Source: an uncultured Gammaproteobacteria bacterium (GTDB taxonomy: Bacteria; Patescibacteriota; Patescibacteriia; 2-12-FULL-60-25). From it: a stretch of DNA of 45,909 nucleotides. Position numbers and translations under genes: made by a program. The DNA is taken from NCBI GenBank assembly GCA_964426815.1, contig CAYRRZ010000001.1:6152-52060 (forward strand), in the 5' to 3' direction. The notes under the pieces were generated by a model. It was not told the origin of the DNA. It saw only the letters and a program-made list of their open reading frames with translations, and made no database searches. This document shows positions 11,382-27,740 of this stretch, piece after piece; position 1 is the stretch's first letter; each line of letters opens with the position of its first letter.

Positions 11382-13649
11382 TTAATCCCGACGGTAGGCG
11401 ATGAGCGCGATATTATCACGCATGGGTAATGGGAGCGATATATCGGCTTTTGGATGCTTTTTTAGCCAAAGCTCACCATGTGACAATGCCTTGCTATTTA
11501 ACCAGCGCGCTGCGGTAGCAAAAACATATGACAATCGAAAAACCTTTGGAATTCGGCCAACCCAGGTAACGACATTCCCCTCTTGTTCAACCAATTGAAT
11601 AAGAGCCTTCTTTGAAAACAGGACGACATGCTCGGGCGGGCAAACAGCATGCCAATATTGACGCAACACGCGCCCCAGAACACTCCCCGCATCTGGCGTA
11701 TTTATGAGCATAGCTCCTCCAGGAGCAAGGCTTTTTAGAGCCTTTCGTAAAAATAAACGTGGCTCATCCACATGCTCGATTACGTCCAGTAAGCAGATGG
11801 CAGTGTATGTTGAAACTGGAAGCTGCTCGAGTGAAATATTCTCGACGATAACATTATTTGCTTTGGCCATTTCTGTAGCGGCTGGTGATATGTCTTGACC
11901 AGTAGCCTCCCAACCTCGCTCACTCGCCCATTTTACAAACATACCTGAAGCGGCGCCGATATCCAGCAATTTTGCCTGAGGCTTTCGATGTGGCTCAAGC
12001 AAATCAAGCATTTTTTCATATGTCGGGCGCGTGGCGATTTTATCCGCATTGTAACTTGCATAACCACCACCGGCGGCATTCCCTGAAAAATATGAATCCG
12101 CATAAAATGCCTTACGCTCAGCTTCACTCGGCATCGGATCGACGGTTAAAGATCCACATGAATGACATTTCCAGACGGAAAACTGTTTTCTCTTTCCAAG
12201 AAGGCGTGTCCAGAATAAAGCCCCACAGGCTTGGCACAATATCTTCTTTTCACCCTTGCTCCTCTGTCGTTCAACTATGGTTACTGCGCTTAGTACTGCG
12301 AGTGGAATCTCGATAAAGATAAACTGCGAACGATATCGACCATCAGCTTGAGCGGCTGCATTTAAAGAAAGAGCGACAATGCCGAGCATGTAGAACCAGG
12401 AAAAGAAAAGAACGTGACGATGTCCAGTAGACTTTTTCCAGAGTACGATGGGAGAAATAAGGGCGAGTACAAAAGCGAGCAACCACACAAATCGCATACA
12501 CATAGCATACCCCCAAGGCGTAGCTACAAGACCAAACATTTTTTCCAAAAAAACCATCGGACCCTGTTGCAGCAGGGTGACGATTGGCGAAAAAGAAGGA
12601 TAGCCAACGTTAACCCATCCGAGCTCACGCAAAACGAGAATTGTATTATCTTGAGAAATGACCGTGATCGCAGCACTGATCTGTGAAATGAGAAATTCTC
12701 TTGGATACTTTTTTACAGCGACAACCGTTTCTTTTTGAAAGATTTCTTTATACGCATATCCATGCACATCCTGTTCTTGCACCGGAGATGCTTCAACGTA
12801 GCCCTTGTCGTGTAAACGCTGAAGATACTCAATACGCATCGAATCATATGACCGACCCGTTGAATATGCCTCAGCAGTTGCGGCGACGCGGGTGTAGAAA
12901 TTAAACCACCCGACATTTGAATAATCCCAAGATCCGAATAAAGAAGCGTTGCGATAAAGCCAAGGCAACACGATGATGATATATGCCGATACAAAGGCCG
13001 TAGCCACCTTTACTCCAGTGATACGAGCCTGTTTTTCGCGCACAAAGGCAGCTAGGGTAATCAAGGTAAATAATAGCGGAACGAACTGCACAATTGGGCG
13101 TGCAAGTGCCGCCGCACCAACCAATGCTCCAGCAACAAGCGACCATTTCCATGAGCGTTTTTCAAGCGCTTGAATGCTCGCCGCAATGCCTGATGCGATC
13201 AATGGTAAAAACACGGCCTCTGAACCAAGGATGCAGCTGTAATACCACAAGTTCAAATCAATGGATAAAATCAATCCAGCGACTAGCCATTTCCTTTTAT
13301 CAGCCGTATAGACGCGCATCAACTGCATTCCCACCAGCGGGATACCTGTTGCCAGGATGACAGACGGGATCAAGCTCGCATACGGCGTTCCAAATACTTT
13401 CATCGAAGCCCATAAAAACCAGGGATATACCGGTGTACGAATTGTGTCGGCTATAAACGGGGCTTCCAGGCGCAAGCTAAAGCCATTGCCTCGTAACAAG
13501 TTTGTCGCGATCGCAATGTACTGACTTCCATCGGTTGCATGCGTCAAAACATACCCCTGGATCCATAAAACAATAAAAAAAATACTATGAATCAAGAGCG
13601 TCCAAATCCAAAGACTGAGAAATGGCCGCCGCAAGATTCGGTCGAGCAT
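11382..13649 (-). CDS. Fusion: GT-C-like (ArnT/PMT_2-type) membrane glycosyltransferase + CxxC..CxxC zinc ribbon + class I SAM methyltransferase
   Basis: About 480 aa of multi-TM sequence carries the loop motif HATDGSQYIAIATNLLRGNGF. This is followed by CQACGALF...KCHSCGSLTVDP, then LLDIGAASGMFVKW, ICLLDVIEHV and LAPGGAMLINTPD. Start placed at Met12 (13649), 2 nt after the gmd stop. Confidence 0.7.
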   Translation of the reverse strand: MLDRILRRPFLSLWIWTLLIHSIFFIVLWIQGYVLTHATDGSQYIAIATNLLRGNGFSLRLEAPFIADTIRTPVYPWFLWASMKVFGTPYASLIPSVILATGIPLVGMQLMRVYTADKRKWLVAGLILSIDLNLWYYSCILGSEAVFLPLIASGIAASIQALEKRSWKWSLVAGALVGAAALARPIVQFVPLLFTLITLAAFVREKQARITGVKVATAFVSAYIIIVLPWLYRNASLFGSWDYSNVGWFNFYTRVAATAEAYSTGRSYDSMRIEYLQRLHDKGYVEASPVQEQDVHGYAYKEIFQKETVVAVKKYPREFLISQISAAITVISQDNTILVLRELGWVNVGYPSFSPIVTLLQQGPMVFLEKMFGLVATPWGYAMCMRFVWLLAFVLALISPIVLWKKSTGHRHVLFFSWFYMLGIVALSLNAAAQADGRYRSQFIFIEIPLAVLSAVTIVERQRSKGEKKILCQACGALFWTRLLGKRKQFSVWKCHSCGSLTVDPMPSEAERKAFYADSYFSGNAAGGGYASYNADKIATRPTYEKMLDLLEPHRKPQAKLLDIGAASGMFVKWASERGWEATGQDISPAATEMAKANNVIVENISLEQLPVSTYTAICLLDVIEHVDEPRLFLRKALKSLAPGGAMLINTPDAGSVLGRVLRQYWHAVCPPEHVVLFSKKALIQLVEQEGNVVTWVGRIPKVFRLSYVFATAARWLNSKALSHGELWLKKHPKADISLPLPMRDNIALIAYRRD

Positions 13650-13651
13650 AC

Positions 13652-14692
13652 TTATGGCTGATGACGATATTGAGCACGCCAATCGAGCAAGTCTTCAGGA
13701 ACTTCAAAGTTCGGCTGAATGCCTTCGCGACGCAAATCAGCAGCGAGCATTATTTTAATTAAATCGTGAAACGTTACTTTCGGCTCCCAATTTAATTCTG
13801 TCTTTGCTTTCGTAAACTCCCCTTTCAGAACGTCGACTTCGGTTGGACGGTAATACAGTGGATCGATTCGCACGATATCATCGGTTTTTAATCCGACAAG
13901 AGATGTAGCTAGATCAACCATTTCGCGAATTGTATGTGTCTCATTTGTTGCGACAACATAATCCCCCGGCTTTGTCTGCTGGACCATGCGCCACATCGCT
14001 TCGACATATTCAGGCGCATATCCCCAGTCGCGTTTTGCATCTAAATTTCCGAGGAATAATTCTTTTTCTTTTCCGGCGACGATCTTAGCAACGGTACTCG
14101 TAACTTTACGCGTCACGAATGTATCGCCACGGCGAGGACTTTCATGATTAAACAAAATACCATTACTTACATGCAGACCATATGCCTCGCGGTAATTTAC
14201 GGCATACCAATATGCAGCCACTTTTGCTACTCCGTATGGACTGCGTGGATAGAACGGCGTCTTTTCATCTTGTGGAGCTGGTGCGGCACCGAACATCTCA
14301 CTTGATGAAGCCTGATAAAAACGACATGGCACTTGAGACTCTCGAATCGCTTCAAGCAAACGAAGCGTACCGAGCCCCGTAACATCACCCGTATACAGAG
14401 GCGCATCAAAACTGACACGCACATGGCTTTGTGCGCCAAGCGCATAGACCTCGTCAGGCACAATACGCGCCAAAAGACGCGATAACATACTCGCATCGCT
14501 TAAATCTCCATAATGAAGAAACAAGCGCGTTCCTTCTTTATGCGGGTCTTGATACAAGTGCTCAATACGCGAGGTATTAAAACTACTGGAGCGTCGCATG
14601 AGACCATGCACTTCATAGCCTTTGGCTAAAAGCAATTCAGCCAAATAACTCCCGTCTTGTCCCGTAATGCCGGTAATGAAGGCCTTTTTCAT
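13652..14692 (-). CDS. gmd: GDP-mannose 4,6-dehydratase
   Basis: 346 aa. Motifs: [60 protein letters not shown]. Canonical Gmd pattern. Confidence 0.92.
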
Positions 14693-14714: not shown

Positions 14715-15815
14715 TCAAAAATGGGCAATAGCATCCACTAATACCTTATCAATCTCAATCGATTCTTTTAGAAGAAGGATAAATTTATGAGCTTCAGCCT
14801 CATAGATCGCTTGTTTTTCTTCATTCGGAAGCTGCTTCAAAGCGTATTGTAATTTTCTCAAAAGTTCATCAAACAAAAAGAAGGGTAATAAATTGATTTC
14901 CGAGCGCAATTTCGGGTTCTCAGAAAAATATCCTTTCAGGAAAATCCCCAAGCCTTTACCAAGGGTTTGCTGCCAGGGTTTCTCTTGAAAAATCACATAC
15001 TGCCTCACAAAGCGATGACAGGCGCTCGCCACCTCTCTCATTAATTGACTCACGCCAATTTCTTCAAAGTCTATTATTGCTTGACACTTTTCATTTTTAA
15101 AAAGAGTGTCATGTGGATGGAGACTGTTCCGCACAATGCCTTGCTGCGCAAATCCGAGTTCATTTTTTTTACTTTTGGCCTTGCGAACGCACAGGTCTAT
15201 CATCGCGAATTCAGATGAATACCGTTCAAACAATTTCGGCACATGCTCTTCGACATACTTCCACTGCTTCGTAAAACTCTCTTCATCCCACGCCACAGAT
15301 CCCTTGTCATTCTTTTTGATTTCTTCGGCAAAAGGCGATCGGTTCAATGCCACATGTAAGCGCGCAATGCACTTCGCAATCTCTTCAAGTTCATATTCCG
15401 TCCCCCTAAAATAATCACCCGGCACATATTCAAACATCTCCCATAAAAATCCGCCCCATTCTACCGGAGCATGTGTCTTGTGTGGATGAAAAATTTTTGG
15501 GACTGGAACGTCAGACTCTGCCATTTGTTCTATTACCTGGTTTATCATGCGAATTCTTTCCACGCGATGTATCGCAAGATTTTTTTTGAGAACAATTTCA
15601 CGCGCATCATTCGTACCAAAAAGAACGACAGTTTTAAAATTATTACTTCTCACTTCCCAAGCCCCGGACTGGAACATGTCGCCCTGAACCTGTAAACCAA
15701 ATCCCTCTTGAATTGCTCGAATAATCTCGTCACGCGTATCTACACCTACAGCGTTCCACTCAACCTGCCACTGACTATGATTATTCGGCAAAAAAAGATC
15801 AGTAGCAGACATCAT
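14715..15815 (-). CDS. ChoK/APH-fold small-molecule kinase (phosphotransferase enzyme family), substrate unknown
   Basis: 366 aa. Brenner-like catalytic loop LHPHDTLFKN followed by the IIDFEEIG metal-binding motif. ATGA overlap with the transketolase stop. Confidence 0.6.
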   Translation of the reverse strand: MMSATDLFLPNNHSQWQVEWNAVGVDTRDEIIRAIQEGFGLQVQGDMFQSGAWEVRSNNFKTVVLFGTNDAREIVLKKNLAIHRVERIRMINQVIEQMAESDVPVPKIFHPHKTHAPVEWGGFLWEMFEYVPGDYFRGTEYELEEIAKCIARLHVALNRSPFAEEIKKNDKGSVAWDEESFTKQWKYVEEHVPKLFERYSSEFAMIDLCVRKAKSKKNELGFAQQGIVRNSLHPHDTLFKNEKCQAIIDFEEIGVSQLMREVASACHRFVRQYVIFQEKPWQQTLGKGLGIFLKGYFSENPKLRSEINLLPFFLFDELLRKLQYALKQLPNEEKQAIYEAEAHKFILLLKESIEIDKVLVDAIAHF

Positions 15816-17719
15816 AGCTGAGCTCGCTGGACAGCTTGAGCAATTGCATCTGCATCAAGTCCATGATGTGCAAGAATCTCTTTTGCATTACCACAAGCTG
15901 GAATACCCGTTACGCCCAATGACACGATCTTTACCTTGATGCCGAACTGCTGCAGCTTGGATTGAATAAACATTCCTTGTCCATTTTCAAGATAATGATC
16001 GTCTACTGTCACAATCGTTTGAACGTTAGATAACGTGGCTTTTGCCCAAGCCTCGTCAATGCGATTAAGCCAAGGAAAATTCAGAACACCGACAGACACC
16101 CCTTGCTGCTCCAATTGCTGCGCTGCTTTTACAGCTTCAATTAAAAGAACTGGACCGTATGTGATAATCACATGCTCTTTTGCTTGACGCACCCATCTGC
16201 CCTTACCCAATTCAAGCTCGCTTGACGCATCGAGTACAAAATTATGCTCTTTTTTTACACTGCTCACACGTAAATAGGTACTTTCTTGATTCACGTTTAG
16301 CGCCCAATTCAGCGACTGTCTCATCTCCAGCTCATTTGCTGGTTCAAGTAAAATCAATCCAGGGATTGCACCTACGGATGAGATTGCGCGGACCTCTTGA
16401 TGCGAATGCCCTGGACCGGCAGGCAACAAGCCAGCGCCTGAACCAAAATATATCACCTTCTTTCTCCCTGGTGCCGACTGTTCAGTAGCCGCATTATAGA
16501 TCTGTTCATTCGGACGCGTACTAAGAAAACACCCCAATGAATGCATGATCGGGATTATCCCTCCCATTGCTAAGCCAGAGCCGATCGAAACCATGTCTTG
16601 TTCCGCAATTCCACATTCCAGAAAACGATCAGGAAATGCTTTTGAAAAAGGAATGAGGCCACAAGAACGAATGAGGTCGCCGTCCAAAACCATGAAGTCC
16701 GGATTATTTTTTCCCTGCTCCACGAGCTCCTGACTATATGCACGCACAAGCTCCTGCTGCTCTTTTGCCGCTTGCGTAAATTCAAACTCTTCCTCAGATA
16801 AAATCAAAGGATCGATCCCAAGCGATACGCACTGTCTTTGCAATTTAGGAATATACTCATCTTTTGCCTGGGTATACTGCGACTCTGTCAGCGTTCCTGC
16901 ATGAAACTTATAAAAACCATCATCCGCCATTTTTTCCATGAAAGATATCCCTTTGCCTTTTATCGTATCGGCGATGATAACAAGTGGCTTGCGTAGACCT
17001 TGATCCGTACGCATTGCGGCATCAATTGCCCGTACATCGTGACCATCACATGAACGAACCTCCCATCCGCAGGCTTGAAATTTAGCCGACAGATCCCCCA
17101 ATGAATGCACATCTTCAACAAATGAATCTGACTGGATTTTATTCCGATCAACGATAACCGTAATTTGCGCCAAGCCTTGATTTGCAATTGACTGTACCGC
17201 TTCCCAATTTTGCCCCTCCTGCAGCTCGCCATCGCCTGTAACAACAAATATCCTCCCGTTTAGACCGTTTTTTTGACGCGCAATCGCAATTCCATGCGCT
17301 TTAGATATTCCCATTCCTAAGGAACCTGTATTACAAATCATGTATGGCGATCGCGCATCTGGATGACCATCAAAACCTCCCAAACGTCGAAATGCATGAA
17401 TTTTTTCAAACGGTAATAGGCCAAGACCGGTCAGCAGGGCATAAAATGAAGGCGTATCATGTCCCTTTGATGAAAAGTATATATCCCCTTCATCCCGTGC
17501 CGTTGGTGCCACCTTGTGCATGATGGACAAAAATAACCAAGTAACAATATCAATCACACTCAAACTGGTGCCGATATGACCTGAGCCCGCCTTAACAATG
17601 GCATATATCGCGTTCCACCGACTCATGTCAGCTATCAAATGCGCTTGGGCATATCTATCGACTTGTGCCTGACGAATACGTGTAAACTCCATCTGTGGGA
17701 TATAAGTCAATTTTGACAT
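15812..17719 (-). CDS. Transketolase-family ThDP-dependent enzyme (fused N-terminal, pyrimidine-binding and C-terminal domains)
   Basis: 635 aa. Motifs: AGSGHIGTSLSVIDI, VVTGDGELQEGQNWEA (ThDP/Mg motif), ECGIAEQDMVSIGSGLA. Confidence 0.8.
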   Translation of the reverse strand: MSKLTYIPQMEFTRIRQAQVDRYAQAHLIADMSRWNAIYAIVKAGSGHIGTSLSVIDIVTWLFLSIMHKVAPTARDEGDIYFSSKGHDTPSFYALLTGLGLLPFEKIHAFRRLGGFDGHPDARSPYMICNTGSLGMGISKAHGIAIARQKNGLNGRIFVVTGDGELQEGQNWEAVQSIANQGLAQITVIVDRNKIQSDSFVEDVHSLGDLSAKFQACGWEVRSCDGHDVRAIDAAMRTDQGLRKPLVIIADTIKGKGISFMEKMADDGFYKFHAGTLTESQYTQAKDEYIPKLQRQCVSLGIDPLILSEEEFEFTQAAKEQQELVRAYSQELVEQGKNNPDFMVLDGDLIRSCGLIPFSKAFPDRFLECGIAEQDMVSIGSGLAMGGIIPIMHSLGCFLSTRPNEQIYNAATEQSAPGRKKVIYFGSGAGLLPAGPGHSHQEVRAISSVGAIPGLILLEPANELEMRQSLNWALNVNQESTYLRVSSVKKEHNFVLDASSELELGKGRWVRQAKEHVIITYGPVLLIEAVKAAQQLEQQGVSVGVLNFPWLNRIDEAWAKATLSNVQTIVTVDDHYLENGQGMFIQSKLQQFGIKVKIVSLGVTGIPACGNAKEILAHHGLDADAIAQAVQRAQL

Positions 17720-17744
17720 ATAACATGAGTCATTGTAACCGAAC

Positions 17745-19220
17745 TTATTCGGTCATTGGGTTATGCGTTATCGTTACCGTTTTCCACTGGGTATAGTTCT
17801 CTAGAGCCTCGGTGCCCGCTTCTCTGGTTCCATTTCCGGAATTTCGACCGCCTCCAAATGGCATATGCGGCTCGCTTCCATATGAATTCCCATTCACATG
17901 AACAACACCGACTTGTAGCCCTCGAATACATTGTTCTGCGCGATGTAAGCTGTCGGTGTAAACCGATGCCGTCAATCCAAACGAGCTATCGTTCAGCTGT
18001 GCAATCGCATCTTGTACGTCCCGAGCGCGGTGAAGGGTCGCCACCGGACCAAAAATTTCCTCCCTCGAAATTGGATACCGCATCGAATCCACCTCAAACA
18101 GAGTCGGTTCAAAAAAGTTACCCAATTCATACCCTTCGCCCGTTATACGCTTCCCTCCACACAATGGATGTATCCCTTGTGCAGCCGTATCGCGCATCAT
18201 CTCCTCAATCCGTTCAATCTGACGCATGCTCAACAAAGGGCCAAGATCATCCGTATCCTGTAAGCCGATCTTGAGCAATGGAATTTTTTCGAGCAATTTT
18301 TTTCGCACTTTTTCATACACCCTATCCATCACAATAATGCGACTTGCCGCCGAACAGCGCTGGCCAGCAAATGAATATGCTGATGAAAGAGCGCTTTTTA
18401 CCGCCAAATCAATATTTGCATCGTCTAAAATAAGGAAGCCGTTCTTTCCTCCAAGCTCCAGAGTTACTTTCACAAATTGGCTAGCTCGCTGAGCAACTGA
18501 TTTTTCTAAATCTTTTCCAACGGTGGCTGATCCGGTAAAGCTAATTGCCTGCACGCGCTCATCTTGTACAAGCGATGCGCCAATCTCTTTTCCAAAACCA
18601 TGCACTACTGAGAATACTCCTTTTGGAAGACCCGCTTCTCGCAATGCATATGCTAATTCCATCCCAGCCGATGGCGTGTCTTCAGATGGCTTCATGATAA
18701 CCGTATTCCCACATAGCAGAGCAGGCATGATAGATCTTCCACCAAATGGCGAATTTCCAGGGACAATCGAAACCACTACTCCCAATGGCTCACGTACGGT
18801 ATACACCAGTCGATGTTCGACCTTGCTGCTCATGGTTTTTCCATACAGGCGGCGGCCTTCACTAGCCCAAAAAAAGATGTGTTCACAAAGGCTATCGACC
18901 TCACCCATTGACTGCTTTCGTGACAATCCGCCATCTAATGCGATTCTTTCCGCGATGACGCTTTTTCTCTCCTGGAGAATCTGCGCCGCTTTACGCAAAA
19001 TATTCCCTCGCGCAATCGGCGTTAGAGCGGCCCACGCTGCGAATGCTTGACATGCGGCTTGAATCGCCATTTCCGCATCCGCTTTTGTTCCACGAGCAAC
19101 CATACAAAGTGGTGCCCCATTTGCCGGACTCCGTTTTTCAAAATACTTCTTTTCAACCGGCTCTACATCTTCATCCTGTATCCAATGCTGGATATGTCTG
19201 ACTTCATTCGTCATACTCAT
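17745..19220 (-). CDS. NAD(P)+-dependent aldehyde dehydrogenase
   Basis: 491 aa. Motifs: VTLELGGKN (catalytic Glu), FAGQRCSAASR (catalytic Cys), EEIFGPV. Confidence 0.88.
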   Translation of the reverse strand: MSMTNEVRHIQHWIQDEDVEPVEKKYFEKRSPANGAPLCMVARGTKADAEMAIQAACQAFAAWAALTPIARGNILRKAAQILQERKSVIAERIALDGGLSRKQSMGEVDSLCEHIFFWASEGRRLYGKTMSSKVEHRLVYTVREPLGVVVSIVPGNSPFGGRSIMPALLCGNTVIMKPSEDTPSAGMELAYALREAGLPKGVFSVVHGFGKEIGASLVQDERVQAISFTGSATVGKDLEKSVAQRASQFVKVTLELGGKNGFLILDDANIDLAVKSALSSAYSFAGQRCSAASRIIVMDRVYEKVRKKLLEKIPLLKIGLQDTDDLGPLLSMRQIERIEEMMRDTAAQGIHPLCGGKRITGEGYELGNFFEPTLFEVDSMRYPISREEIFGPVATLHRARDVQDAIAQLNDSSFGLTASVYTDSLHRAEQCIRGLQVGVVHVNGNSYGSEPHMPFGGGRNSGNGTREAGTEALENYTQWKTVTITHNPMTE

Positions 19221-19921
19221 ATTGTTATCTCTTCGATATCTGCATCTTGAATCTCACAAATGCTTTTGACAATAGGAAAGGTCTGCGGTGAATTAGCCCA
19301 TGCATTACGATCCGATAGGATCCCGATAAATTTACCGCCATACACCCTTGCTGACTCTGCATCCTCTACCCCATCACCAATAACAATAACCTCTGAAGGT
19401 GGCGCCTGCTCGCAGGCAGATATTCTCAAAATGTTTTTCAACTTGGCGTTCTGAGCATCTTCAGATCCGTCCGGATTTGTTCCATAGATTCCCAAAAAAA
19501 ATTGCTCTAAATTCAAACGCTTTACCAAGGCTCGCAATGTATTCTCAGGCGTTCCAGAACTTAGGTATAATCGATTGTTTTTCGAAAGATGCTCCAGCAC
19601 CTCCTTCACACCGGGAAACATGCCCCGTTGCACGATACGATCTTCGACGAGAATGTCGTATCTATGCACATATTCCAAGACGTCTTGTTCAAGCTCTTCG
19701 GTTCCTTTTTGCGGATACGCCTCCTTCAAAACAGCGCGTATAATCTCACTTCGAAGCTTGCCTTTTAGACAAGGAATTACTCGCTCAGCAATGCTCTGAA
19801 CCTCGCTCGGCTCTTCAGCAAAAACCTCAAAACGCGCACGATACTTCAGTTCAAGTGAATCAACCAAGGTTCCATCAAAATCGAAAATAAAAACCTTTCC
19901 ACGTGATTCAAGAAGTTGCAT
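19217..19921 (-). CDS. HAD-superfamily phosphatase (PGP/beta-PGM-like, capped)
   Basis: 234 aa. Motif I FIFDFDGTLVDS. Late motif VIGDGVEDAESA. ATGA overlap with the ALDH start. Confidence 0.75.
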   Translation of the reverse strand: MQLLESRGKVFIFDFDGTLVDSLELKYRARFEVFAEEPSEVQSIAERVIPCLKGKLRSEIIRAVLKEAYPQKGTEELEQDVLEYVHRYDILVEDRIVQRGMFPGVKEVLEHLSKNNRLYLSSGTPENTLRALVKRLNLEQFFLGIYGTNPDGSEDAQNAKLKNILRISACEQAPPSEVIVIGDGVEDAESARVYGGKFIGILSDRNAWANSPQTFPIVKSICEIQDADIEEITI

Positions 19922-19924
19922 ACG

Positions 19925-20755
19925 CTACCAAGCCGTATACCCTCCATCGATCAACAAGTTGCTCCCCGTGCTATATGTATCCGTGACTAAAAACAATAAG
20001 GCGCGGTTGTATTCATTTTCATTCGCCATGCGCCGCATAGGAGTACGTTGTATATATTTCTCAGTGAATTCTGCATCTCCTGATGGGCTAAGAACCCCAC
20101 CTGGTGACAAGGCCACAACGCGAATTCCTTTTGGTGCCCACTGTGTAGCCAAATCACGCGTCAGCGCAAGCATCGCCGCCTTGGAAGCACCATAGGATGC
20201 ATCTTTTACAAAGACCTTTCCCGTCGTACGTTCACGGTGTTCATAAATACGCTGATCAGGTGAAACCAAAGCGTAGTGCGATGCGATATTTACAATAGTC
20301 CCCGGTGTTTGGGCAGCAATCAATTTCTGCGCCATGATTTTTGAACAAATGACCGAACTCGTCAGATTCATTCGAAAAACCTCTTCCCAGGTGTCAATCG
20401 GATATGTTTCAAATGGAACGCTTGCACGACTTGCTTGATTTGGCGAAGCCTTCCATCCCGCATTATTAATTAAAATTGTTGGCACGGACCACTGACGAAT
20501 AACCTCATCAAAGGCCGCCTGAACTTCCGCTTCATGCGTCACATCCACCTTCAAGCAAAGCAATGGATACGTCTCAGCTAATGCAGATAGTCTTTCATTT
20601 GGCTTTTCTGAGATATCAAAAATAGCCACTCGCGCATTTGCACGTAACAAGACCTCGGCATAATTCGTCCCCAACTTTCCCAATCCACCCGTCAAAACAA
20701 CAACTTGCTGCTTAAGATCAAAAAGAGATTGCAAATAATCAAGATCGATTGCCAT
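19925..20755 (-). CDS. Classical short-chain dehydrogenase/reductase
   Basis: 276 aa. Motifs: VVVLTGGLGKLG, NNAG, YGASKAA (YxxxK). Confidence 0.8.
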   Translation of the reverse strand: MAIDLDYLQSLFDLKQQVVVLTGGLGKLGTNYAEVLLRANARVAIFDISEKPNERLSALAETYPLLCLKVDVTHEAEVQAAFDEVIRQWSVPTILINNAGWKASPNQASRASVPFETYPIDTWEEVFRMNLTSSVICSKIMAQKLIAAQTPGTIVNIASHYALVSPDQRIYEHRERTTGKVFVKDASYGASKAAMLALTRDLATQWAPKGIRVVALSPGGVLSPSGDAEFTEKYIQRTPMRRMANENEYNRALLFLVTDTYSTGSNLLIDGGYTAW

Positions 20756-20767
20756 ATAGGGATATGT

Positions 20768-21655
20768 TTATTCATTTTGCAAACAGGCACACAAAGCATC
20801 AAACAGCGTTTTATTTGTGGCGGCTATGACCATCTGTGCCCGATGTGTCTGCGCCTCATACCCTTTTACAAATAGCTCAGCACCAGCGCCTTTAGCTAGA
20901 TATAGGATCGCCAAGGTATCCTCCATATCGGCCACATCTTTAACAACAACCGCAGCAAGCCGACCATCCAATAATCCTGATGGAACCGCATCCCATTCGG
21001 GATCCATGCGACCATAGGCATCGTATGCATCATGCGCAATGATCGAATCAGGCTCTATATTTTGAATATCTTTCAAGCGATGGCGCAATGACCGGCTGAC
21101 ATAGACTGTCTTTTTCCCTTGTGAGGGAATCTTGTAGTCTTGCCAAACCAAATCCGTACTAGTCTCGTCACCGACTTCTGCTCGGACGACATGGCTTTCA
21201 TTTCCTTTATATATCACCCCCAATCTTGGCAAATACACAACCGTCAATCGTTGCTTTTGATGCGTCTCGCGATCACACAATGTAAAGATTGTTTCAAAAC
21301 ATTTTTTTCCATCTTGAAAATACGCTGTCCCGTTTATCGGATCCAAGAAGAGCGCGAATGGTTGATTTTTCTCAAAATATCGACTTATCGCATCACCCTG
21401 CGCTTCTTCTGACTGGAGAGTTACGTCGCTCAAATTAAGCGCGGATAAACCAATGGCATTCCCAATAGCGATATCCGCATCGGTTACCGCTTGTTTGGAC
21501 CAGTGATTATCCGCACTTTCTTTTACCGACCTAGTTCCATCAACCCCTTTTTGAAGACCATCTTGAATACGACATGCGCCTTTTCCCGCCTGAATCACGA
21601 CCGGTATCAGATACTGAGCCGCTTTATCCAGACCGAGACGCATGACACTTTGCAT
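20768..21655 (-). CDS. Inositol monophosphatase / FBPase / CysQ-superfamily phosphatase-like protein, divergent motifs
   Basis: 295 aa. Has an SEEA acidic pair. FLDPINGTAYF resembles the DPxDGT motif but with Asn for the second Asp. EDTLAILYLAKGAGAEL resembles the WDxAAGxLIxxEAGG motif. Confidence 0.5.
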   Translation of the reverse strand: MQSVMRLGLDKAAQYLIPVVIQAGKGACRIQDGLQKGVDGTRSVKESADNHWSKQAVTDADIAIGNAIGLSALNLSDVTLQSEEAQGDAISRYFEKNQPFALFLDPINGTAYFQDGKKCFETIFTLCDRETHQKQRLTVVYLPRLGVIYKGNESHVVRAEVGDETSTDLVWQDYKIPSQGKKTVYVSRSLRHRLKDIQNIEPDSIIAHDAYDAYGRMDPEWDAVPSGLLDGRLAAVVVKDVADMEDTLAILYLAKGAGAELFVKGYEAQTHRAQMVIAATNKTLFDALCACLQNE

Positions 21656-21658
21656 ACT

Positions 21659-22099
21659 TTAGCGCGTTTCTACTTCCTCAATCGTGGTCGAAGGCAAACC
21701 CTCCGGTTCAACTAAACCATATGCCGTTTCCATGCGAACACGGTCATTAAAGTGTGGCGTTGACGCTTCAAAAATAATGCAATCTGTAATGGCTTTCACT
21801 CGGTGAATGCAGCCTGGCGGAAAACGAACACTCTCACCAGCAACTAATTTTTTCTCAACAAGAACGCCATCACCTGGATCATACGTCAACATCGCTTCAC
21901 CAGAATAGATGTAGGATGTTTCGTCTTTTAAATGATGTCGCTGCAAACCACCCATCGCCCCAGCATTCATACATATCAACTTCCCTGTGTATTTTCCTGG
22001 TGAATGCGCAATGAGAATTTCGCGACCCCAATTACGCGGACCAACATCATGGACTTTGAAAAAATCTACGGGTACATGTGTTTCTGGCATGAGTGACAT
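21659..22099 (-). CDS. Cupin-domain protein resembling the C-terminal mannose-6-phosphate isomerase domain of type II PMI/ManC
   Basis: 146 aa. Motifs: NWGREILIA, GLQRHHLKDETSYIYSGEA, VRFPPGCIHRVKA, FNDRVRMETAYG. Confidence 0.6.
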   Translation of the reverse strand: MSLMPETHVPVDFFKVHDVGPRNWGREILIAHSPGKYTGKLICMNAGAMGGLQRHHLKDETSYIYSGEAMLTYDPGDGVLVEKKLVAGESVRFPPGCIHRVKAITDCIIFEASTPHFNDRVRMETAYGLVEPEGLPSTTIEEVETR

Positions 22100-22124
22100 A
22101 TTAGTTATCGTTAAACTAATCTTT

Positions 22125-23216
22125 TTACCATTCGAGGGCTTTTGTTGGAATCAAGGTGTCACCCTCAATATCTTCTTTTGCGGCTTTGCCGATGATTTTA
22201 TGCACCAAGTTTGGTTTCAAACCAGAACCCGGGCTTTTGATCGTCATCATATCTGCGGTGATCTTTGTTCCTGCTGGAATACGGACAGCCGCAACCAAAC
22301 TCTTTGAGTGTTTCGAACGTGTCTTGTACTCATCTGCATCAACATCCTTCGTTCCCTCACCAACCATTAATTCGACGCGACGAATTTCTTTCATGCACTG
22401 GGTCATTTCTTCGGGCGTCAAACTTAATTTGTGATCTGGACCCTTCATGTCTTTCGCCATCGTAAAGTGGCGCTCGATAACATGTGCTCCTTTTGAAACG
22501 GCGACCAAGGTAGGCAAGAAGTCTGTTTCGTGGCCAGAATACCCAATTGGAAGTGGGCGATAGCGGCGCTTCATCACATCGATCACGGACAAATCCAACT
22601 TATCATCTGGTGTTGGATAAATCGAAACACAATGCAGAATAACGAGACGATTATTATATTTCAAAATCGTCTCAACGGCTTCGTCAACTTCTTCCATGGT
22701 CGACATGCCGGTGGATAAGATAATCGGCTTATTGCGCTTTGCCACATCCTCAATCAATGGAAGATTAGTGACATCAAAAGAAGCGATCTTGTAGGCATCT
22801 ACACCGATATCTTCCAAGAATTTGACACTTGTATGATCAAAAGGTGTCGCAAAGAAAACAAGATCGAGTTTTTTGGCCAGGGTTCGTAATTCCAAAAATC
22901 CATCGCGATCTATTTCAAGCTTTGCTCGATGTTCGCCATATGTCGCACCAAGCGAGGTCGGCGTGTTGTATGGTGCATCGAGCGCTTCTTTCGTAAAGAC
23001 CTGGTCAAGCGTGCGGCGTTGAAATTTAACTGCTTGGCAACCAGCTTCCTTTGCTTTAACGATCAGTTGTTTTGCGATTTCTAAATCTCCATTATGATTA
23101 TTGCCAATTTCAGCAATCATGTAGGTCGGGCAGCCCGTTCCCACATACTGCGTTCCAATCTTCACTTTATCCGGTAACTGTTGAAGAATGCGTTTAACTG
23201 CGAGTTGTATAGCCAT
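22125..23216 (-). CDS. NeuB-family PEP-dependent (non)ulosonic acid synthase with C-terminal SAF domain
   Basis: 363 aa. Motifs: TYMIAEIGNNHNGDLEIAKQLIVKAKEAGCQAVKFQ, GYSGHE, ERHFT. SAF-like tail RIPAGTKITADMMTIKSPGSGL. Confidence 0.88.
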   Translation of the reverse strand: MAIQLAVKRILQQLPDKVKIGTQYVGTGCPTYMIAEIGNNHNGDLEIAKQLIVKAKEAGCQAVKFQRRTLDQVFTKEALDAPYNTPTSLGATYGEHRAKLEIDRDGFLELRTLAKKLDLVFFATPFDHTSVKFLEDIGVDAYKIASFDVTNLPLIEDVAKRNKPIILSTGMSTMEEVDEAVETILKYNNRLVILHCVSIYPTPDDKLDLSVIDVMKRRYRPLPIGYSGHETDFLPTLVAVSKGAHVIERHFTMAKDMKGPDHKLSLTPEEMTQCMKEIRRVELMVGEGTKDVDADEYKTRSKHSKSLVAAVRIPAGTKITADMMTIKSPGSGLKPNLVHKIIGKAAKEDIEGDTLIPTKALEW

Positions 23217-23289: not shown

Positions 23290-24681
23290 TTATTTGAGCC
23301 ATTGCAAAACCCTTGCCCCGATCTGTTTGCCAGCTGACCCAATCGGACCCACTAGAGCGTCGACCAAGGCCTTACGGCCCTCGGCGTGTTTTTGTGGGTT
23401 TTTTAGATATTCCCTCGACGCGTCTATTAGTTCCTGCTCTGTATTTACCCGCCAAACACCACCTAGCTTCTGAACAATACGATAATGCGTTACGTCAAGT
23501 CCCTGCAAAACACTTTGATAGTATGGACGATTTGTATAGCCATCGAAACCAATAATAATAACCGGTCTATTGAATATCGCGCTCTCGATGGTCATGGTTG
23601 AGCCTGTATTGTATTCGACATCCGCATACCGAAGCATATTCAACATTAAACGAATATCTTCTGCATCCAATTCCCACTCCCCTATGAGATCACTTACCTT
23701 TTTTCCAGGCTGCTGAAAAACAACATGTTTGAATTGATCCAGTTTAAGTACACGAACATCGTACTTTGGATGCGCGCGAAGCACGATGGTTGCCGGAGGA
23801 AGTCGCCCATCTTCAATCGCACGATCAAGCATCAGCAAGTGCTCGGATGGATCATCCTGATTCATGACACCGCCCATGCAATACAATAGAAAGGGCTTTG
23901 TTGGATCAATCCCTAATGCCGCGCATGTCTCTTCACGAGTAAGCTCATCAACCGAGTTGTGATATGTATCATACTGGGGACAGCCTCCATCAAAAACTTG
24001 ATTGGGAGGCATATCGCCCAAGCTCAATGCATCGGCATGAACGACACGATTTGGAACAATTAACACATCCGGTTTTACTAAAAGTAAACCCTTTGAAGAA
24101 AGATTGTCCCAGGTTTTCACCATACCTATCAGCGGTATGCCTTGGCGCCGAGCATATTTCATCAGCGCAATATTGGTTCCATGAATAACATTGGTAGCGA
24201 ATGCTAGGCTTGGACGGTATTTCTCGAAGAGCGGCTTCCAAGCATCAACATCCTCCTTAAAGACAGTAAATTCGACCATGCGGACAAATTCACGCCATGG
24301 TCGAATGCATCCCAAAAACCAAGTCAGCTTCTTCCAGAGGAGGGCAAAAAACTGTCCTACGCTTTTGTGTTCCGTAAAAACCTTGATCGAACGAATCCAG
24401 ACCGTGCGCGTTGGGACGCTATTGTACGAAAGTGAACGCCAGAATGCTCGTGAACGTGACATTCCATATTCTAAGTCTGCGACGGCTTCAAAAACCACTC
24501 TATCGGAACCGAATTCTTTTTGATAAAAGGCCTGTTTTTTTTCAGGTACGGCGCAAACAATACGGAGCTCAGGATCAGACAATAAAGTCGGAAGCACATC
24601 GGTTCGTAACAGATTTTTTACCTCTGCCGATGTAGACAATGTCATGATCAGGGTTTTTGGCATATGAGGTATTTTTCTCAT
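23290..24681 (-). CDS. Uncharacterised GT-B-like protein with HP motif (candidate CMP/CDP-donor glycosyl or glycerophospho-transferase)
   Basis: 463-aa ORF with no TM segments. Motifs: KPFLLYCMGG, ATIVLRAHPKYD, NTGSTMTIESAIFNRPVIII. First gene of the long minus-strand operon. Confidence 0.45.
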   Translation of the reverse strand: MRKIPHMPKTLIMTLSTSAEVKNLLRTDVLPTLLSDPELRIVCAVPEKKQAFYQKEFGSDRVVFEAVADLEYGMSRSRAFWRSLSYNSVPTRTVWIRSIKVFTEHKSVGQFFALLWKKLTWFLGCIRPWREFVRMVEFTVFKEDVDAWKPLFEKYRPSLAFATNVIHGTNIALMKYARRQGIPLIGMVKTWDNLSSKGLLLVKPDVLIVPNRVVHADALSLGDMPPNQVFDGGCPQYDTYHNSVDELTREETCAALGIDPTKPFLLYCMGGVMNQDDPSEHLLMLDRAIEDGRLPPATIVLRAHPKYDVRVLKLDQFKHVVFQQPGKKVSDLIGEWELDAEDIRLMLNMLRYADVEYNTGSTMTIESAIFNRPVIIIGFDGYTNRPYYQSVLQGLDVTHYRIVQKLGGVWRVNTEQELIDASREYLKNPQKHAEGRKALVDALVGPIGSAGKQIGARVLQWLK

Positions 24682-24784
24682 TTTTTTTGATTTATTGCAA
24701 ATAGATGCCTTGACTTTTTTAGCTTTTTATTGTACTCAAACCCTACACGTCCTTTTTAAAAACCATTCGACCACGGAGAGCTTC
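24682..24784. promoter_or_regulatory. AT-rich divergent intergenic region; presumed promoters for the 24681-> minus operon and the 24785-> plus operon
   Basis: 103 nt. On the minus strand a TACAAT -10-like hexamer (plus coordinates 24729..24734) lies about 48 nt upstream of the ATG at 24681. GGAGAG Shine-Dalgarno at 24775..24780, 4 nt before the ATG at 24785. No good -35 found. Confidence 0.3.
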
Positions 24785-27008: not shown

Positions 27009-27740
27009 ATGCAGCCCACTCTTCGCGTTCTAGGCGTTGTCGGTGCTCGATCAGGTTCAAAGAGCATTCCGGACAAAAATATTAAACCACTCCATGGAAA
27101 ACCTCTCATGGGCTGGATTATTGAAGCCGCCAAGGCCTCCAAGTACATCACTAAGCTCGTCCTGTCGACGGATAGCGAGGCTTATGCGGAGATCGGTCGC
27201 CAATACGGTGCTGAGACGCCTTTTCTTCGTCCGACGGAAATCGCCACCGACAAGGCGATCGATATTGAATATTTATCACATGCCGTGCGCTGGGTTGAAG
27301 AACATGAAGGCTGGAAGCCGGATATTATCCTTCGATTACCAGCAACATCCCCGCTTTGTAAAACAGAATTCATTGATCGATGCATTGAACTTCTCTTAGA
27401 AAATCCAGAAGCAAGCTCAGCGAGAACGGTTACCGAAGCCTCTAAGCATCCCTACAAACTTTGGCGCATTGATCCAAGTGGTTTGTACCTTGAGCCCTTT
27501 TGCCCCAAAGAAATGACCGGTTATGATGAACCGTTTGGTATGCCACGCCAGCTATTTCCTCCGAGCGTTTCGCATACGGATTGCATCGCCGTTCGTTATT
27601 CGACCATGATGGAACAGCACTCACTATCTGGTCCACGTGTCGCCTTTCATCAAATTAAGAAAACCGATGCCTGCGATATCGACACCATAACCGATTTTTT
27701 TGTGGCCGAAGCTTTGCTCAAAGCAAGACTCGATGGATAA
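27009..27740 (+). CDS. Acylneuraminate (CMP-nonulosonate/ulosonate) cytidylyltransferase family
   Basis: 243 aa. Motifs: VVGARSGSKSIPDKNIKPLHGKPLMGWIIEAA, LSTDSE, FLRPTEIATD. Confidence 0.85.
   Translation: MQPTLRVLGVVGARSGSKSIPDKNIKPLHGKPLMGWIIEAAKASKYITKLVLSTDSEAYAEIGRQYGAETPFLRPTEIATDKAIDIEYLSHAVRWVEEHEGWKPDIILRLPATSPLCKTEFIDRCIELLLENPEASSARTVTEASKHPYKLWRIDPSGLYLEPFCPKEMTGYDEPFGMPRQLFPPSVSHTDCIAVRYSTMMEQHSLSGPRVAFHQIKKTDACDIDTITDFFVAEALLKARLDG

Follow-up and report, generated by a model that had tools for sequence, protein, structure and literature searches.

The 45,909-nucleotide stretch of DNA analysed here, called the window below, very probably holds a conserved pathway by which a CMP-activated 3-deoxy-2-ulosonic acid is made and then installed on a surface glycan, with a dedicated module of a transketolase-family enzyme (TK), an aldehyde dehydrogenase (ALDH) and an SDR. 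The conserved core, as judged from sequence comparison, is a NeuB-family synthase, the SDR, the ALDH, the TK and a CMP-transferase, usually along with a TagF-like transferase. For the specific route, in which TK, ALDH, HAD and SDR prepare an acceptor that NeuB turns into a dicarboxylic acid, only a tentative case can be made; every chemical step is inferred, there is no assay and the product is not known.

Gene layout and conservation across loci

Eight tightly packed ORFs of the minus strand (14715-23216) were found at just the coordinates given in the original prediction, and their spacing and two ATGA overlaps were borne out as well. The gaps between successive genes, taken from NeuB to kinase, are 25, 3, 12, 3, -4, 25 and -4 nt, and the overlaps were read directly from the sequence as CTATGATG at 15812-15815 (TK and kinase genes) and ATATGAGTATG at 19217-19220 (HAD and ALDH genes). 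Pfam and NCBIfam profiles upheld the domains proposed for NeuB/SAF, SDR, HAD, ALDH, TK and APH kinase, while the cupin and IMPase-like calls came out weaker. The idea of a self-contained sub-operon did not survive, as the eight genes are not the natural unit: co-directional genes go on at both ends, upstream after 73 nt with the gene at 23290-24681 and downstream after 22 nt with a bona fide GDP-mannose 4,6-dehydratase. Inside the eight-gene block, signals for promoters or terminators did not rise above chance.

The usual partners of NulO and Kdo synthesis had been reported as absent from the window, and this is supported within the scope of the searches. Probing the 275 window ORFs of 60 aa or more with Epimerase_2, DegT aminotransferase and acetyltransferase proteins of related loci turned up no homologue of any of them. 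KdsA and KdsD were not among the probes, and neither was shown by Pfam scans of the larger ORFs of the window, which left out ORFs under 120 aa.

The comparison was done with eleven other independent loci (L001, L004/5, L006/13, L008/9, L010, L011, L012, L022, L023, L024 and L025). SDR, ALDH, TK and CMP-transferase occur together with a keto-deoxy-acid synthase in nine of the eleven; the synthase belongs to the same NeuB clade in L001, L004/5, L006, L011, L012, L022, L023 and L024, and a KDPG-type aldolase (PF01081) replaces it in L010. An SDR-kinase-ALDH-TK block is present in L008, fused or adjacent to a TagF-like transferase, with no NeuB and no CMP-transferase within 18 kb. The module spans divergent lineages, with TK identity falling to ~48% and kinase identity to ~33%. 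L025 has a NeuB of the same clade with HAD, CMP-transferase and cupin family B and without the SDR/ALDH/TK block, so the module is not strictly indispensable to this NeuB clade; of two loci picked blind by their NeuB, one had the module and the other lacked it.

The gene set had been called an orphan, which it is not: it is widespread, especially in Patescibacteria/CPR. It could still be asked whether housekeeping TK, ALDH, SDR, HAD and kinase genes merely stand by chance beside a standard NeuB, as each family is common by itself and the TK is ~49% identical to CPR proteins annotated plainly as 'transketolase'. This explanation can hardly be maintained, because the same neighbours are kept together in ten further independent loci across divergent lineages, the genes are coupled through the ATGA overlaps, and TK and NeuB bear clade-specific active-site changes; it was rejected on the neighbourhood data. 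A full-text literature search found no published description of the gene set, as had been claimed, and none of the described ulosonic acid or sialic-acid-type pathways that were compared or searched showed the TK/ALDH/SDR module present here. The cupin, HAD, NeuB and CMP-transferase set of L025 resembles a Kdn-type route, and the minimal set that the original prediction took as its baseline thus exists without the TK module and fits.

Synthase, CMP-transferase and TagF-like transferase

The NeuB-family PEP-condensing synthase with its SAF domain (22125-23216, minus strand; PF03102 2e-80, SAF 1e-8) scored 338 bits against TIGR03569, for which the cut-off is 400 bits. Its clade keeps the aligned E25, K53, Q55, K129, S132, S154, Y186, S213, H215, H236 and D247 (N. 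meningitidis numbering) and carries the swaps R314 to S, F288 to K, D214 to G and I248 to H in 113-119 of 119 clade members. Arg314 presumably binds the N-acetyl group in the N. meningitidis enzyme, where the role of F288 is likewise presumed. A second NeuB paralogue of the same CPR loci, which adjoins Epimerase_2, DegT and Hexapep genes, has retained R314. Because R314 is lost and Lys and His are gained at nearby aligned positions, an anionic, non-acetylated aldehyde is suggested as the substrate of the clade, and the pocket signature K288/H248/S314 is identical across all its variants.

The cytidylyltransferase proposed at 27009-27740 (plus strand) is real (PF02348 1e-21). It is a core CMP-ulosonic-acid synthetase of CTP_transf_3, the CMP-Kdo/CMP-NulO synthetase family, with PseF as best NCBIfam match (122 bits over full length, under cut-off); it is 58-93% identical in L001, L004, L006, L022 and L023 and present in 10 of the 11 other independent loci. 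The head of this divergent operon (24785-26077, plus strand) encodes a protein of unknown function without family match, whose first 246 aa share 30% identity (8e-25) with the N-terminal domain of a 501-aa CTP_transf_3 fusion of L006; AlphaFold, run on the single sequence, gave a poor model (pLDDT 40). The protein is a probable accessory. Directly upstream of the CMP-transferase lies an extended, GalE/dehydratase-like SDR (25902-26975, plus strand; PF01370 7e-59; best NCBIfam match GalE, under cut-off), and downstream a SAM methyltransferase (27700-28446, plus strand; Methyltransf_11 1e-15). The epimerase-CTP_transf_3-methyltransferase order is also seen in L001; in more distant loci the extended SDR is not kept, and its membership of the system is uncertain. 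The methyltransferase has counterparts in L001 (92% identity) and L004 (68%), adjoining CTP_transf_3 in both; it possibly O-methylates the sugar, its membership being uncertain too.

The TagF-like (Glyphos_transf-related) protein at 23290-24681 (minus strand) was missed earlier. It has no Pfam match at default threshold (Glyphos_transf only at E 0.17), and was classified by hhalign, where its family alignment A2 matched a 450-aa protein of L010 (E 7e-85, 36% identity, full length), the C-terminal half of a 925-aa protein of L008 (E 9e-44) which Pfam calls Glyphos_transf (1.9e-17), and an L025 protein (E 6e-33). The window, L001 and L006 all have the gene directly upstream of NeuB; in L004 it lies close by on the other strand. 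Conserved and usually found with the core, it belongs to the system, and its product is the likely transferase of the CMP-activated acid sugar; the partner transferases across loci are TagF-like or PF05159 KpsC/S-like, which fit a CMP-releasing donor.

The same transferase may also be read as part of a system with two separate products, in which NeuB and CMP-transferase give an ordinary Kdn-like acid, while kinase, TK, ALDH, SDR and HAD give a small phosphorylated acid or polyol, for example the phosphate of a tetronate or of glycerate, which the TagF-like enzyme links through a phosphodiester as a substituent like those of teichoic acids. Alditol phosphates are what the Glyphos_transf family classically transfers, TagD-like CTP_transf_like genes occur in L010 too, and the L008 block leads directly to its TagF-like fusion. 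We hold this quite unlikely, however, since the TagF-like protein goes along with NeuB and CTP_transf_3 also where the TK module is missing (L025), the kinase-less variants have no phosphate to link, Pfam and family scans found no IspD/TagD-family CDP-alcohol-type cytidylyltransferase in the window, and the module co-occurs with NeuB or aldolase in 9 of 10 independent loci.

Transketolase, kinase and associated enzymes

The core TK (15812-17719, minus strand) has Transketolase_N, pyr and C domains and human-TKT-like length, and represents a divergent subfamily (373 bits against NF004559, cut-off 488 bits; nearest PDB match human TKT, 3e-58). It retains the catalytic His37/77/110/258, D155, N185, E366 and R474, and shows the changes D424 to P, H416 to G and Q428 to H, with R318 absent. 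The ALDH (17745-19220, minus strand; PF00171 2e-139), also core and NAD(P)-dependent, has alpha-ketoglutaric semialdehyde DH and BADH as best NCBIfam matches, both under cut-offs, and its Cys (GQRCSA), Glu (LELGGKN) and Asn motifs are readable in the sequence. In every module locus its gene and the TK gene are next to each other or nearly so, and the two are co-located in all 10 other TK-carrying independent loci; the simplest explanation for an ALDH within a sugar pathway is a second carboxylate. The classical SDR (19925-20755, minus strand; adh_short_C2 1e-40; TGxxxGxG and YxxxK), a core member found in 10 of the 11 other loci, is nearest to GolD/DthD, gluconate 5-dehydrogenase and mannonate oxidoreductase (all under cut-offs), families that act on sugar acids or polyols.

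The APH-fold small-molecule kinase (14715-15815, minus strand; PF01636 3e-14) gave no match in a PDB sequence search, and its family is small, with 53 representatives at E<=1e-30 among 1.84e9. From the ATGA overlap its gene is predicted to be translationally coupled to the TK gene. Where the TK has Ser at the position of human residue 345 the kinase is present in 7/7 loci, and where it has Asp there, in 0/4; this is the canonical phosphate-binding position of TK, so that the Ser/Asp switch co-varies with the kinase, but the correlation is confounded by phylogeny, as the TKs with Ser345 all fall in one subclade. The HAD-IA phosphatase (19217-19921, minus strand; PF00702 8e-18, PF13419 5e-17, DxDGT motif) is found in the kinase-containing L001, L004, L006 and L022, HAD and kinase are fused in the kinase homologue P0264, and no phosphatase is encoded in the cluster by the kinase-less L011, L012 and L024. 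Kinase and HAD together mark a 'phospho' variant.

The cupin (21659-22099, minus strand), a possible sugar or sugar-acid isomerase, has Cupin_2 (9e-9) alone above threshold, MannoseP_isomer reaching 19.7 bits against a 23.6-bit cut-off. Besides the window, its family A occurs only in L001 and L002, and a domain in L010 shares 31% identity with it; the cupins of other loci are of the unrelated family B, and no cupin was seen in L011, L022, L023, L024 and L008. The divergent IMPase/CysQ-superfamily protein (20768-21655, minus strand; motif DPINGT) has no Pfam match at default threshold (Inositol_P E 0.014) and weak HisN/CysQ matches of about 1e-5; its AlphaFold model is moderate (pLDDT 62) with CysQ/IMPase as the top four Foldseek matches (3b8b, E 9e-6), and only 3 homologues were found among 5.8e9 proteins. 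By their distribution both are lineage-specific accessories, the role of the IMPase-like protein not being assigned.

These enzymes may also suggest chain extension to a C10-C11 ulosonic acid, analogous to heptose and lincosamide octose logic: the kinase would give an aldose phosphate, TK would add two carbons to form a ketose phosphate, the cupin would make the longer aldose phosphate, NeuB would add three carbons and HAD would dephosphorylate. GmhA/HldE/GmhB and LmbR/N/P/K follow such a logic of kinase, isomerase, HAD and C-C bond-forming enzyme, and the phosphate-site Ser in TK of kinase-containing loci agrees with it. The scheme is very unlikely, as it leaves the invariant ALDH and SDR without a role and depends on a cupin that is not universal and on phosphate handling that kinase-less variants lack.

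Proposed route and order of steps

The C-C bond former of the loci is NeuB (PEP plus aldehyde) or, in L010, the PF01081 pyruvate aldolase, and since both make 2-keto-3-deoxy acids the product is placed in this class. Aldolases of the Eda type, like that of L010, favour short aldehydes that bear an anionic group (G3P, glyoxylate). The two options offered in the original prediction, synthesis of an aldose acceptor and side-chain tailoring, are both still live, and the evidence leans to acceptor synthesis, in which the TK, ALDH and SDR trio would supply an unusual anionic aldehyde.

For the 'phospho' variant of the window, the APH kinase would phosphorylate a free ketose, TK would take off its C1-C2 ketol to leave an aldose phosphate two carbons shorter, ALDH would turn the aldehyde into an aldonate phosphate, and HAD would strip the phosphate. 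The SDR, perhaps with the cupin isomerase, would then make a new aldehyde from the freed terminal diol, giving a short uronate-type aldehyde-acid, to which NeuB would add PEP to form a dicarboxylic 3-deoxy-2-ulosonic ('ulosaric') acid; a hexulose at the start would lead to a Dha-like 3-deoxy-heptulosaric acid. CTP_transf_3 would make the CMP-sugar and the TagF-like protein would transfer the acid, and kinase-less variants may follow the same route on unphosphorylated sugars. The phosphate logic inferred to back this route consists of the Ser345/kinase pattern, the TK-kinase overlap, the pairing and fusion of HAD with kinase, and the missing phosphatase of the kinase-less loci. Against it, oxidation of a primary alcohol by a classical SDR is unusual, the alternative of a ketone followed by cupin isomerisation needs a cupin where five loci showed none, and L008 has neither NeuB nor CMP-transferase within 18 kb.

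The module may instead act after condensation, trimming the tail of a Kdn-like acid to the same end-product class in another step order. Cupin, NeuB and HAD would make a Kdn-like nonulosonic acid from hexose or hexose-6-P, the SDR would oxidise the C8 hydroxyl to a ketone (a terminal ketol), TK would remove C9-C8, and ALDH would oxidise the C7 aldehyde to give 3-deoxy-heptulosaric acid, possibly on the CMP-locked sugar. Such an oxidise-cleave-oxidise series is chemically natural, the families nearest to the SDR oxidise the penultimate hydroxyl of sugar acids (e.g. gluconate 5-dehydrogenase), and by our stereochemical reasoning Kdn has at C6/C7 the configuration that the D-threo rule asks of a TK donor. 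L025 fits a stand-alone Kdn-type route to which the module could be added, and the SDR::CTP_transf_3 fusion of L010 and the frequent adjacency of the two genes elsewhere hint at action at or after activation, not before NeuB. We nevertheless consider trimming unlikely. It leaves the phosphate-site switch and the TK-kinase coupling unexplained, a KDPG-type aldolase in place of NeuB (L010) is hard to square with a hexose acceptor, and L008 has the module without NeuB. In kinase-less loci without phosphatase NeuB would moreover have to work on free hexose, yet its pocket is the same in all variants.

As to the acceptor route, the kinase-TK-ALDH-HAD-SDR-...-NeuB gene order is common to the window, L004 and L006, and when read in reverse it matches the proposed order of steps.

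Distribution of the gene set across related loci

The eight minus-strand genes of the window are part of a pathway which is well supported as real and conserved and is apparently undescribed, with its product undetermined. All eight ORFs were present where the original prediction had placed them (14715-23216) and they are tightly packed, with gaps of 25, 3, 12, 3, -4, 25 and -4 nt and both ATGA overlaps read directly in the sequence. The domain labels were supported by Pfam/NCBIfam for six of them, namely NeuB with SAF, a classical SDR, a HAD-IA protein, an ALDH, a three-domain transketolase-like enzyme (TK) and an APH-fold kinase; those of the cupin and the IMPase-like protein are softer.

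The neighbourhood sample consisted of 12 independent loci, the window included, and gene presence and absence were summarised by a local phmmer matrix. A chance juxtaposition of genes, which the prediction had named as one possible refutation, was excluded, as the same genes recur across independent loci. The close relative L001 has all eight genes in the same order. The locus pairs L004/L005 and L006/L013 have the order [TagF-like]-NeuB-SDR-HAD-ALDH-TK-kinase-HAD2 with a cupin and a CTP_transf_3 gene nearby, and their TK is about 60% identical to that of the window. In L022 and L023 the NeuB, APH kinase(s), SDR, ALDH, TK (about 50-52% identical) and CTP_transf_3 genes occur together. The Niyogibacteria locus L008 shows SDR-kinase-ALDH-TK followed by a TagF-like fusion protein, and the Sungiibacteriota locus L010 carries a TagF-like gene, a methyltransferase, CTP_transf_3, a CTP_transf_3::SDR fusion, ALDH, an unknown gene, a KDPG-type aldolase and TK. 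In L011 and L012, which like L008 and L010 come from Patescibacteria/CPR MAGs, the arrangement NeuB-...-SDR-CTP_transf_3-(radical SAM)-ALDH-TK adjoins a separate canonical Leg/Pse-type NulO gene set.

A partly blind test was done with two NeuB homologues on long contigs, picked without knowledge of their neighbours. The first, in Buchananbacteria (L024), lies in the order NeuB-SDR-MTase-ALDH-CTP_transf_3-TK. The second (L025) lies in the order cupin...CTP_transf_3-HAD-NeuB, with no TK, ALDH or SDR within 10 kb. In every TK locus examined the ALDH and TK genes are neighbours or nearly so. The conserved core consists of SDR, ALDH, TK, CMP-transferase and a keto-deoxy-acid synthase, which is NeuB or, in L010, an aldolase; kinase and HAD are the marks of one variant, and the cupin and IMPase-like genes are accessories.

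The partner genes of the Neu5Ac, pseudaminic and legionaminic acid pathways had been described as missing, and this was borne out: Epimerase_2, DegT and acetyltransferase probes from related loci, and also KpsC/S and aldolase probes, found no related sequence in the 275 ORFs of 60 aa or more in the window, and Pfam scans of the window found none of the first three either. KdsA and KdsD, which the homology probes did not include, were not found in Pfam scans of the larger window ORFs. Pattern scans with the kinase alignment retrieved one related locus only from the GTDB species genomes (L007) and one only from the JGI metagenomes (L013, the same contig as L006), the rest being distant APH kinases. 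Full-text literature searches returned no paper in which a transketolase is joined in such a manner to NeuB or to an ulosonic acid pathway, and none of the papers found by them describes the gene set.

Synthase, CMP-transferase and class of product

The window NeuB (22125-23216) matches PF03102 at 2.1e-80 over model positions 1-241 of 241 and has a C-terminal SAF domain (1.1e-8), and it stays below the equivalog cut-offs for N-acetylneuraminate synthase (TIGR03569, 338.1 vs 399.65 bits) and pseudaminic acid synthase (TIGR03586, 258.8 vs 340.25 bits). The clade was aligned to N. meningitidis NeuB for comparison of residues. The metal and PEP residues E25, K53, K129, S132, S154, S213, H215 and H236 (N. 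meningitidis numbering) are kept in the window protein and in 119/119 clade members. The clade substitutions are R314 to S (113/119), F288 to K (119/119), D214 to G (119/119) and I248 to H (118/119), and the window protein itself has Ser at the Arg314 position in the SAF domain. In the N. meningitidis structure Arg314 is reported to contact the N-acetyl group. From its loss together with the gain of K288 and H248 we infer, by residue comparison and without assay data, an acceptor without an N-acyl group, which may be anionic.

Three loci carry a second NeuB gene beside that of the cluster. The first paralogue (L011 919-1923, L012 3347-4396, L024 4894-5964) keeps Arg314 and D214 and has Leg/Pse-type neighbours (Epimerase_2, DegT, Hexapep), and the second (L011 10001-11086, L012 10001-11083, L024 10001-11077) has Ser314 and lies with SDR, ALDH and TK. 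Two paralogues side by side, differing at position 314 and in their neighbours, imply that each of these islands makes two different ulosonic acids.

The cytidylyltransferase placed by the prediction at 27009-27740 (+) was confirmed (PF02348, 1e-21); it is PseF-like over its full length, with PseF as the nearest NCBIfam family, below cut-off. In the complete Sungiibacteriota genome (L010) a KDPG/KHG-type aldolase (PF01081, 9195-9890) stands in the place held elsewhere by NeuB. Since NeuB and the PF01081 pyruvate aldolase both make 2-keto-3-deoxy acids, the class of product is a 3-deoxy-2-ulosonic acid, although no product has been identified, and the locus belongs with the CMP-ulosonic-acid pathways in the broad sense.

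Transketolase-like enzyme and proposed order of steps

The window TK (15812-17719) has Pfam matches for the N, pyrimidine-binding and C domains and belongs to a subfamily of about 630 aa, closest to human TKT. It keeps H37, H77, H110, H258, D155, N185 and E366 (human numbering), that is, the ThDP motif GDG...N, the activating Glu and the catalytic His. At the substrate site S345 and R474 are kept, R318 is absent with an R one position later, H416 is replaced by G (G/Q/L across the subfamily) and D424 by P; the score against NF004559 is 372.7 vs a cut-off of 488 bits. On these residues the enzyme fails the test for a canonical transketolase substrate site. The TK homologues P0004-P0123, annotated 'transketolase' in many Patescibacteria/CPR MAGs, all have Pro at the position of human D424 and lack R318 and H416. 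The TKs of L010, L011, L012 and L024 always lie beside ALDH and CMP-transferase in glycan clusters.

Position 345, the canonical phosphate-binding Ser and Ser352 of the window TK, is Ser in 15 and Asp in 105 of 120 TK homologues. The APH kinase is present in all 7 independent Ser345 loci examined and absent from all 4 independent Asp loci examined, a correlation which is not phylogenetically independent. The TK stop codon lies in an overlap with the kinase gene. HAD phosphatases occur together with the APH kinase across loci, and a cluster-kinase homologue of 577 aa (P0264, 33% identity) has an N-terminal HAD_2 domain, a fusion which ties kinase and phosphatase to one process. The best NCBIfam matches of the window HAD are capped HAD-IA families (beta-PGM, phosphoglycolate phosphatase), and its match to HAD-IIIA is partial only (23.8 vs 44.6 bits). 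The families closest to the SDR have sugar acids and polyols as substrates; PDB searches returned one unnamed short-chain dehydrogenase only for the SDR, no match for the ALDH at a strict cut-off of 1e-90, and no useful sequence or profile match for the kinase. A kinase and ALDH working as a ProB/ProA-type carboxylate-reducing pair was rejected, since variants without the kinase still have the ALDH and hydroxyl groups are what APH kinases phosphorylate. Catabolism was likewise rejected as a role, as PEP condensation is biosynthetic and the setting is a 46-kb glycan island.

In a sugar pathway the ALDH would most simply provide a second carboxylate. The favoured route places TK, ALDH and SDR before NeuB, and every chemical step in it is inferred, with no assay data. 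A ketose, phosphorylated by the APH kinase in the window variant, would lose a C2 ketol unit to TK and give an aldose or aldose phosphate, which ALDH would oxidise to the aldonate or aldonate phosphate; HAD would release the free aldonate, and the SDR, with or without a cupin isomerase, would convert it to a uronate-type aldehyde-acid. NeuB would then condense this with PEP to a 3-deoxy-ulosaric acid, to be activated with CMP and transferred by the TagF-like protein. With a hexulose as start the product would be a Dha-like heptulosaric acid, and its stereochemistry cannot be inferred. The predicted neutral mass of free 3-deoxy-heptulosaric acid (C7H10O8) is 222.04, and that of free Kdn (C9H16O9) 268.08. 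This order of steps rests on the covariation of kinase and TK, the absence of a phosphatase where the kinase is lacking, the changes in NeuB that point to an anionic pocket, the replacement of NeuB by an aldolase in L010 and the gene order of the window. The main rival reaches the same end product in reversed order: a Kdn-like C9 acid would come first, and SDR, TK and ALDH would shorten it afterwards. It gains from L025, which lacks the TK/ALDH/SDR module yet has the NeuB set, and from the fusion of the SDR with a CTP_transf_3 domain (L010 4854-6449), but it is opposed by the same kinase-TK covariation and by the variants without phosphatase. Two further readings, in which a phosphodiester substituent is made separately or the chain is lengthened to a higher sugar, were considered less likely.

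A dicarboxylic ulosaric acid is a possible product, and the most economical one. A tentative proposal, which we consider less likely than not, is that a CMP-activated ulosaric acid (a dicarboxylic 3-deoxy-ulosonic acid of the Dha type) has in this module its first biosynthetic pathway. If it is true, both the known chemistry of ulosonic acids and the metabolic reconstructions of CPR would change, and the CPR 'transketolases' of about 630 aa would be dedicated glycan enzymes acting with ALDH. These proteins may not be pentose-phosphate enzymes, and the use of a CPR 'transketolase' as a marker of that pathway is a possible mis-assignment. Among Patescibacteria/CPR, whose envelopes have hardly been characterised, the pathway appears to be common, and it provides a concrete target for glycan chemistry. 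It is open to direct testing: the enzymes are all soluble, and the proposed substrates, namely ketoses, PEP, NAD(P)+ and CTP, are commercial except the tetruronate and the CMP-linked intermediates.

Known pathways, transfer and accessory genes

We know of only a few enzyme logics for sialic, legionaminic and pseudaminic acids, Kdo and Kdn, and of none with a ThDP-dependent transketolase or an aldehyde dehydrogenase; together with the conserved NeuB-TK-ALDH-SDR-CMP-transferase set this predicts an undescribed acid sugar or an undescribed route. The Neu5Ac, legionaminic and pseudaminic acid pathways share with the window the synthase fold and catalytic residues, a CMP-transferase closest to PseF and the end use in surface glycans, but the window is without epimerase, aminotransferase and acetyltransferase, its NeuB lacks Arg314 and the equivalog cut-offs are unmet. 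Human TKT (PDB 3ooy/4kxu) shares with the window TK the three-domain architecture, the ThDP/metal motif and the catalytic His, so that ketol cleavage or transfer is expected; it differs in the residues which bind the sugar phosphate and the acceptor C2-OH, and the window gene lies in a glycan operon beside ALDH. In Shewanella, Kdo8N is formed by KdnB, which oxidises the Kdo tail, and KdnA, which transaminates it. This is a precedent for redox remodelling of the tail of a 3-deoxy-ulosonic acid ahead of its CMP activation, but the enzymes are an iron alcohol dehydrogenase and an aminotransferase, and to our knowledge the route has no ThDP enzyme, no C-C cleavage and no second carboxylate. The heptose and lincosamide pathways served as further analogies for comparison.

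The CMP-Kdn pathway of Bacteroides thetaiotaomicron and Prymnesium parvum consists of the Kdn-9-P synthase BT1714, a Kdn-9-P phosphatase (UniProt Q8A712) and a CMP-Kdn synthetase (PMC6200933). What it shares with the window is limited to a HAD phosphatase, a CMP-transferase of the CTP_transf_3 type and a NeuB-family synthase whose acceptor is non-acetylated and probably anionic, which for the window is inferred from sequence; the minimal relative L025 (cupin, HAD, NeuB and CMP-transferase) resembles it. On whether the window synthase is specific for mannose 6-phosphate, the loss of R314 and the gain of K288/H248 give indirect hints only. The window adds the invariant TK, ALDH and SDR, a dedicated APH kinase and a TagF-like transferase. 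The Kdn-9-P phosphatase, BT1713, is of the KdsC-like cap-less HAD type, in contrast to the capped HAD-IA protein of the window.

Dha (3-deoxy-D-lyxo-hept-2-ulosaric acid), a component of plant rhamnogalacturonan-II and of some bacterial O-antigens, belongs to the product class predicted for the window and is the only well-known natural ulosaric acid of which we are aware. A 2025 review treats the enzymes that make it and its nucleotide form alike as unknown (PMC12168206). No result of the present analysis links the locus to Dha itself, and the stereochemistry of the window product is undetermined.

The putative transferase is a TagF-like protein of 463 aa (23290-24681, minus strand), located 73 nt upstream of NeuB, which the prediction had not included in the set. 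It has no Pfam match at default threshold, a direct match to Glyphos_transf (PF04464) only at E 0.17, and no useful match in PDB sequence or profile searches. By hhalign its family profile matches over the full length a 450-aa protein of L010 (E 7e-85), the C-terminal half of a 925-aa protein of L008 (E 9e-44), which is assigned by Pfam to Glyphos_transf of the TagF family (1.9e-17), and a protein of L025 (E 6e-33). Homologues are also present in L001, L004, L006, L022 and L023, and L011 and L024 have a PF05159 KpsC/S-like protein instead. The donors of TagF-like and KpsC/S-like enzymes release CMP, in keeping with a CMP-linked donor supplied by CTP_transf_3. A 435-aa protein upstream of NeuB in L024 was tried as a TagF-like candidate and rejected (not significant, probability 11%).

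The window cupin passes the generic Cupin_2 model and does not reach the ManC-type PF01050 (19.7 vs 23.6 bits). It belongs to a family (window 21659-22099, L001, L002) unrelated to a second one which occupies the same niche in other clusters (L003 1275-1706, L004 4017-4457, L006 13961-14404, L012 11094-11519, L025 6904-7341), and this looks like non-orthologous displacement. The IMPase-like protein (20768-21655) has only three homologues among 5.8 billion proteins, one of which, in L003, adjoins a cupin of the second family. It has no Pfam match at default threshold (Inositol_P, E 0.014, 15 vs 27 bits), weak CysQ/HisN matches and no useful PDB sequence or profile match; its top four Foldseek matches are CysQ/IMPase, but the TM is low (about 0.4) and the AlphaFold model used is of moderate quality (pLDDT 62). 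In the window protein and in all three known homologues DPINGT replaces the canonical DPIDGT (residues about 105-110), and with the second metal-binding Asp changed to Asn the protein may, as far as sequence can tell, not be a conventional phosphatase.

Domain scans describe the window as a 46-kb glycan-biosynthesis island with a Bac_transf initiating transferase, a flippase-like protein, an AsnB-like amidotransferase, GT2, GT4 and PMT_2 glycosyltransferases and a bona fide GDP-mannose 4,6-dehydratase (TIGR01472, 511 bits vs a 415-bit cut-off); no RNA genes were found in it with Rfam. In gene content it is similar to the CPR loci, which is no more than a hint at its affiliation. The four PMT_2/ArnT-like membrane glycosyltransferases (11382-13682, 30935-32428, 36002-37399 and 38012-41473), together with at least eight SAM methyltransferases, suggest a heavily methylated glycan assembled outside the membrane. 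One of the four is a methyltransferase fusion and another, of 1153 aa, is fused to two GT4 domains. In most loci a methyltransferase lies near the CMP-transferase or NeuB (window 27700-28446, L001 1-460, L004 985-1701, L010 3254-4105, L024 11879-12637), belonging to Methyltransf_11/23 in the window lineage and to the FkbM-like Methyltransf_21 in CPR, which hints that the acid sugar is O-methylated. A radical SAM protein of about 585 aa lies between CTP_transf_3 and ALDH on the opposite strand in L011 (12668-14422, minus) and L012 (15254-17014, minus) and is absent from the window.

The divergent operon is headed by an unknown ORF (24695-26077, plus strand). A comparison of the unknown 430-aa window protein with the unknown 432-aa protein of L001 gave no match, and a single-sequence structure model of the unknown protein at 24785-25864 was poor (pLDDT 40). 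Inside the ORF there is a strong terminator-like hairpin (25867-25894, an 11-bp stem and a T run), and its final 70 or so residues are Cys-rich and look unlike protein; a frameshift or an earlier end of the true gene is possible. The N-terminal 246 aa of the ORF match a domain which in L006 is fused to the CMP-transferase.
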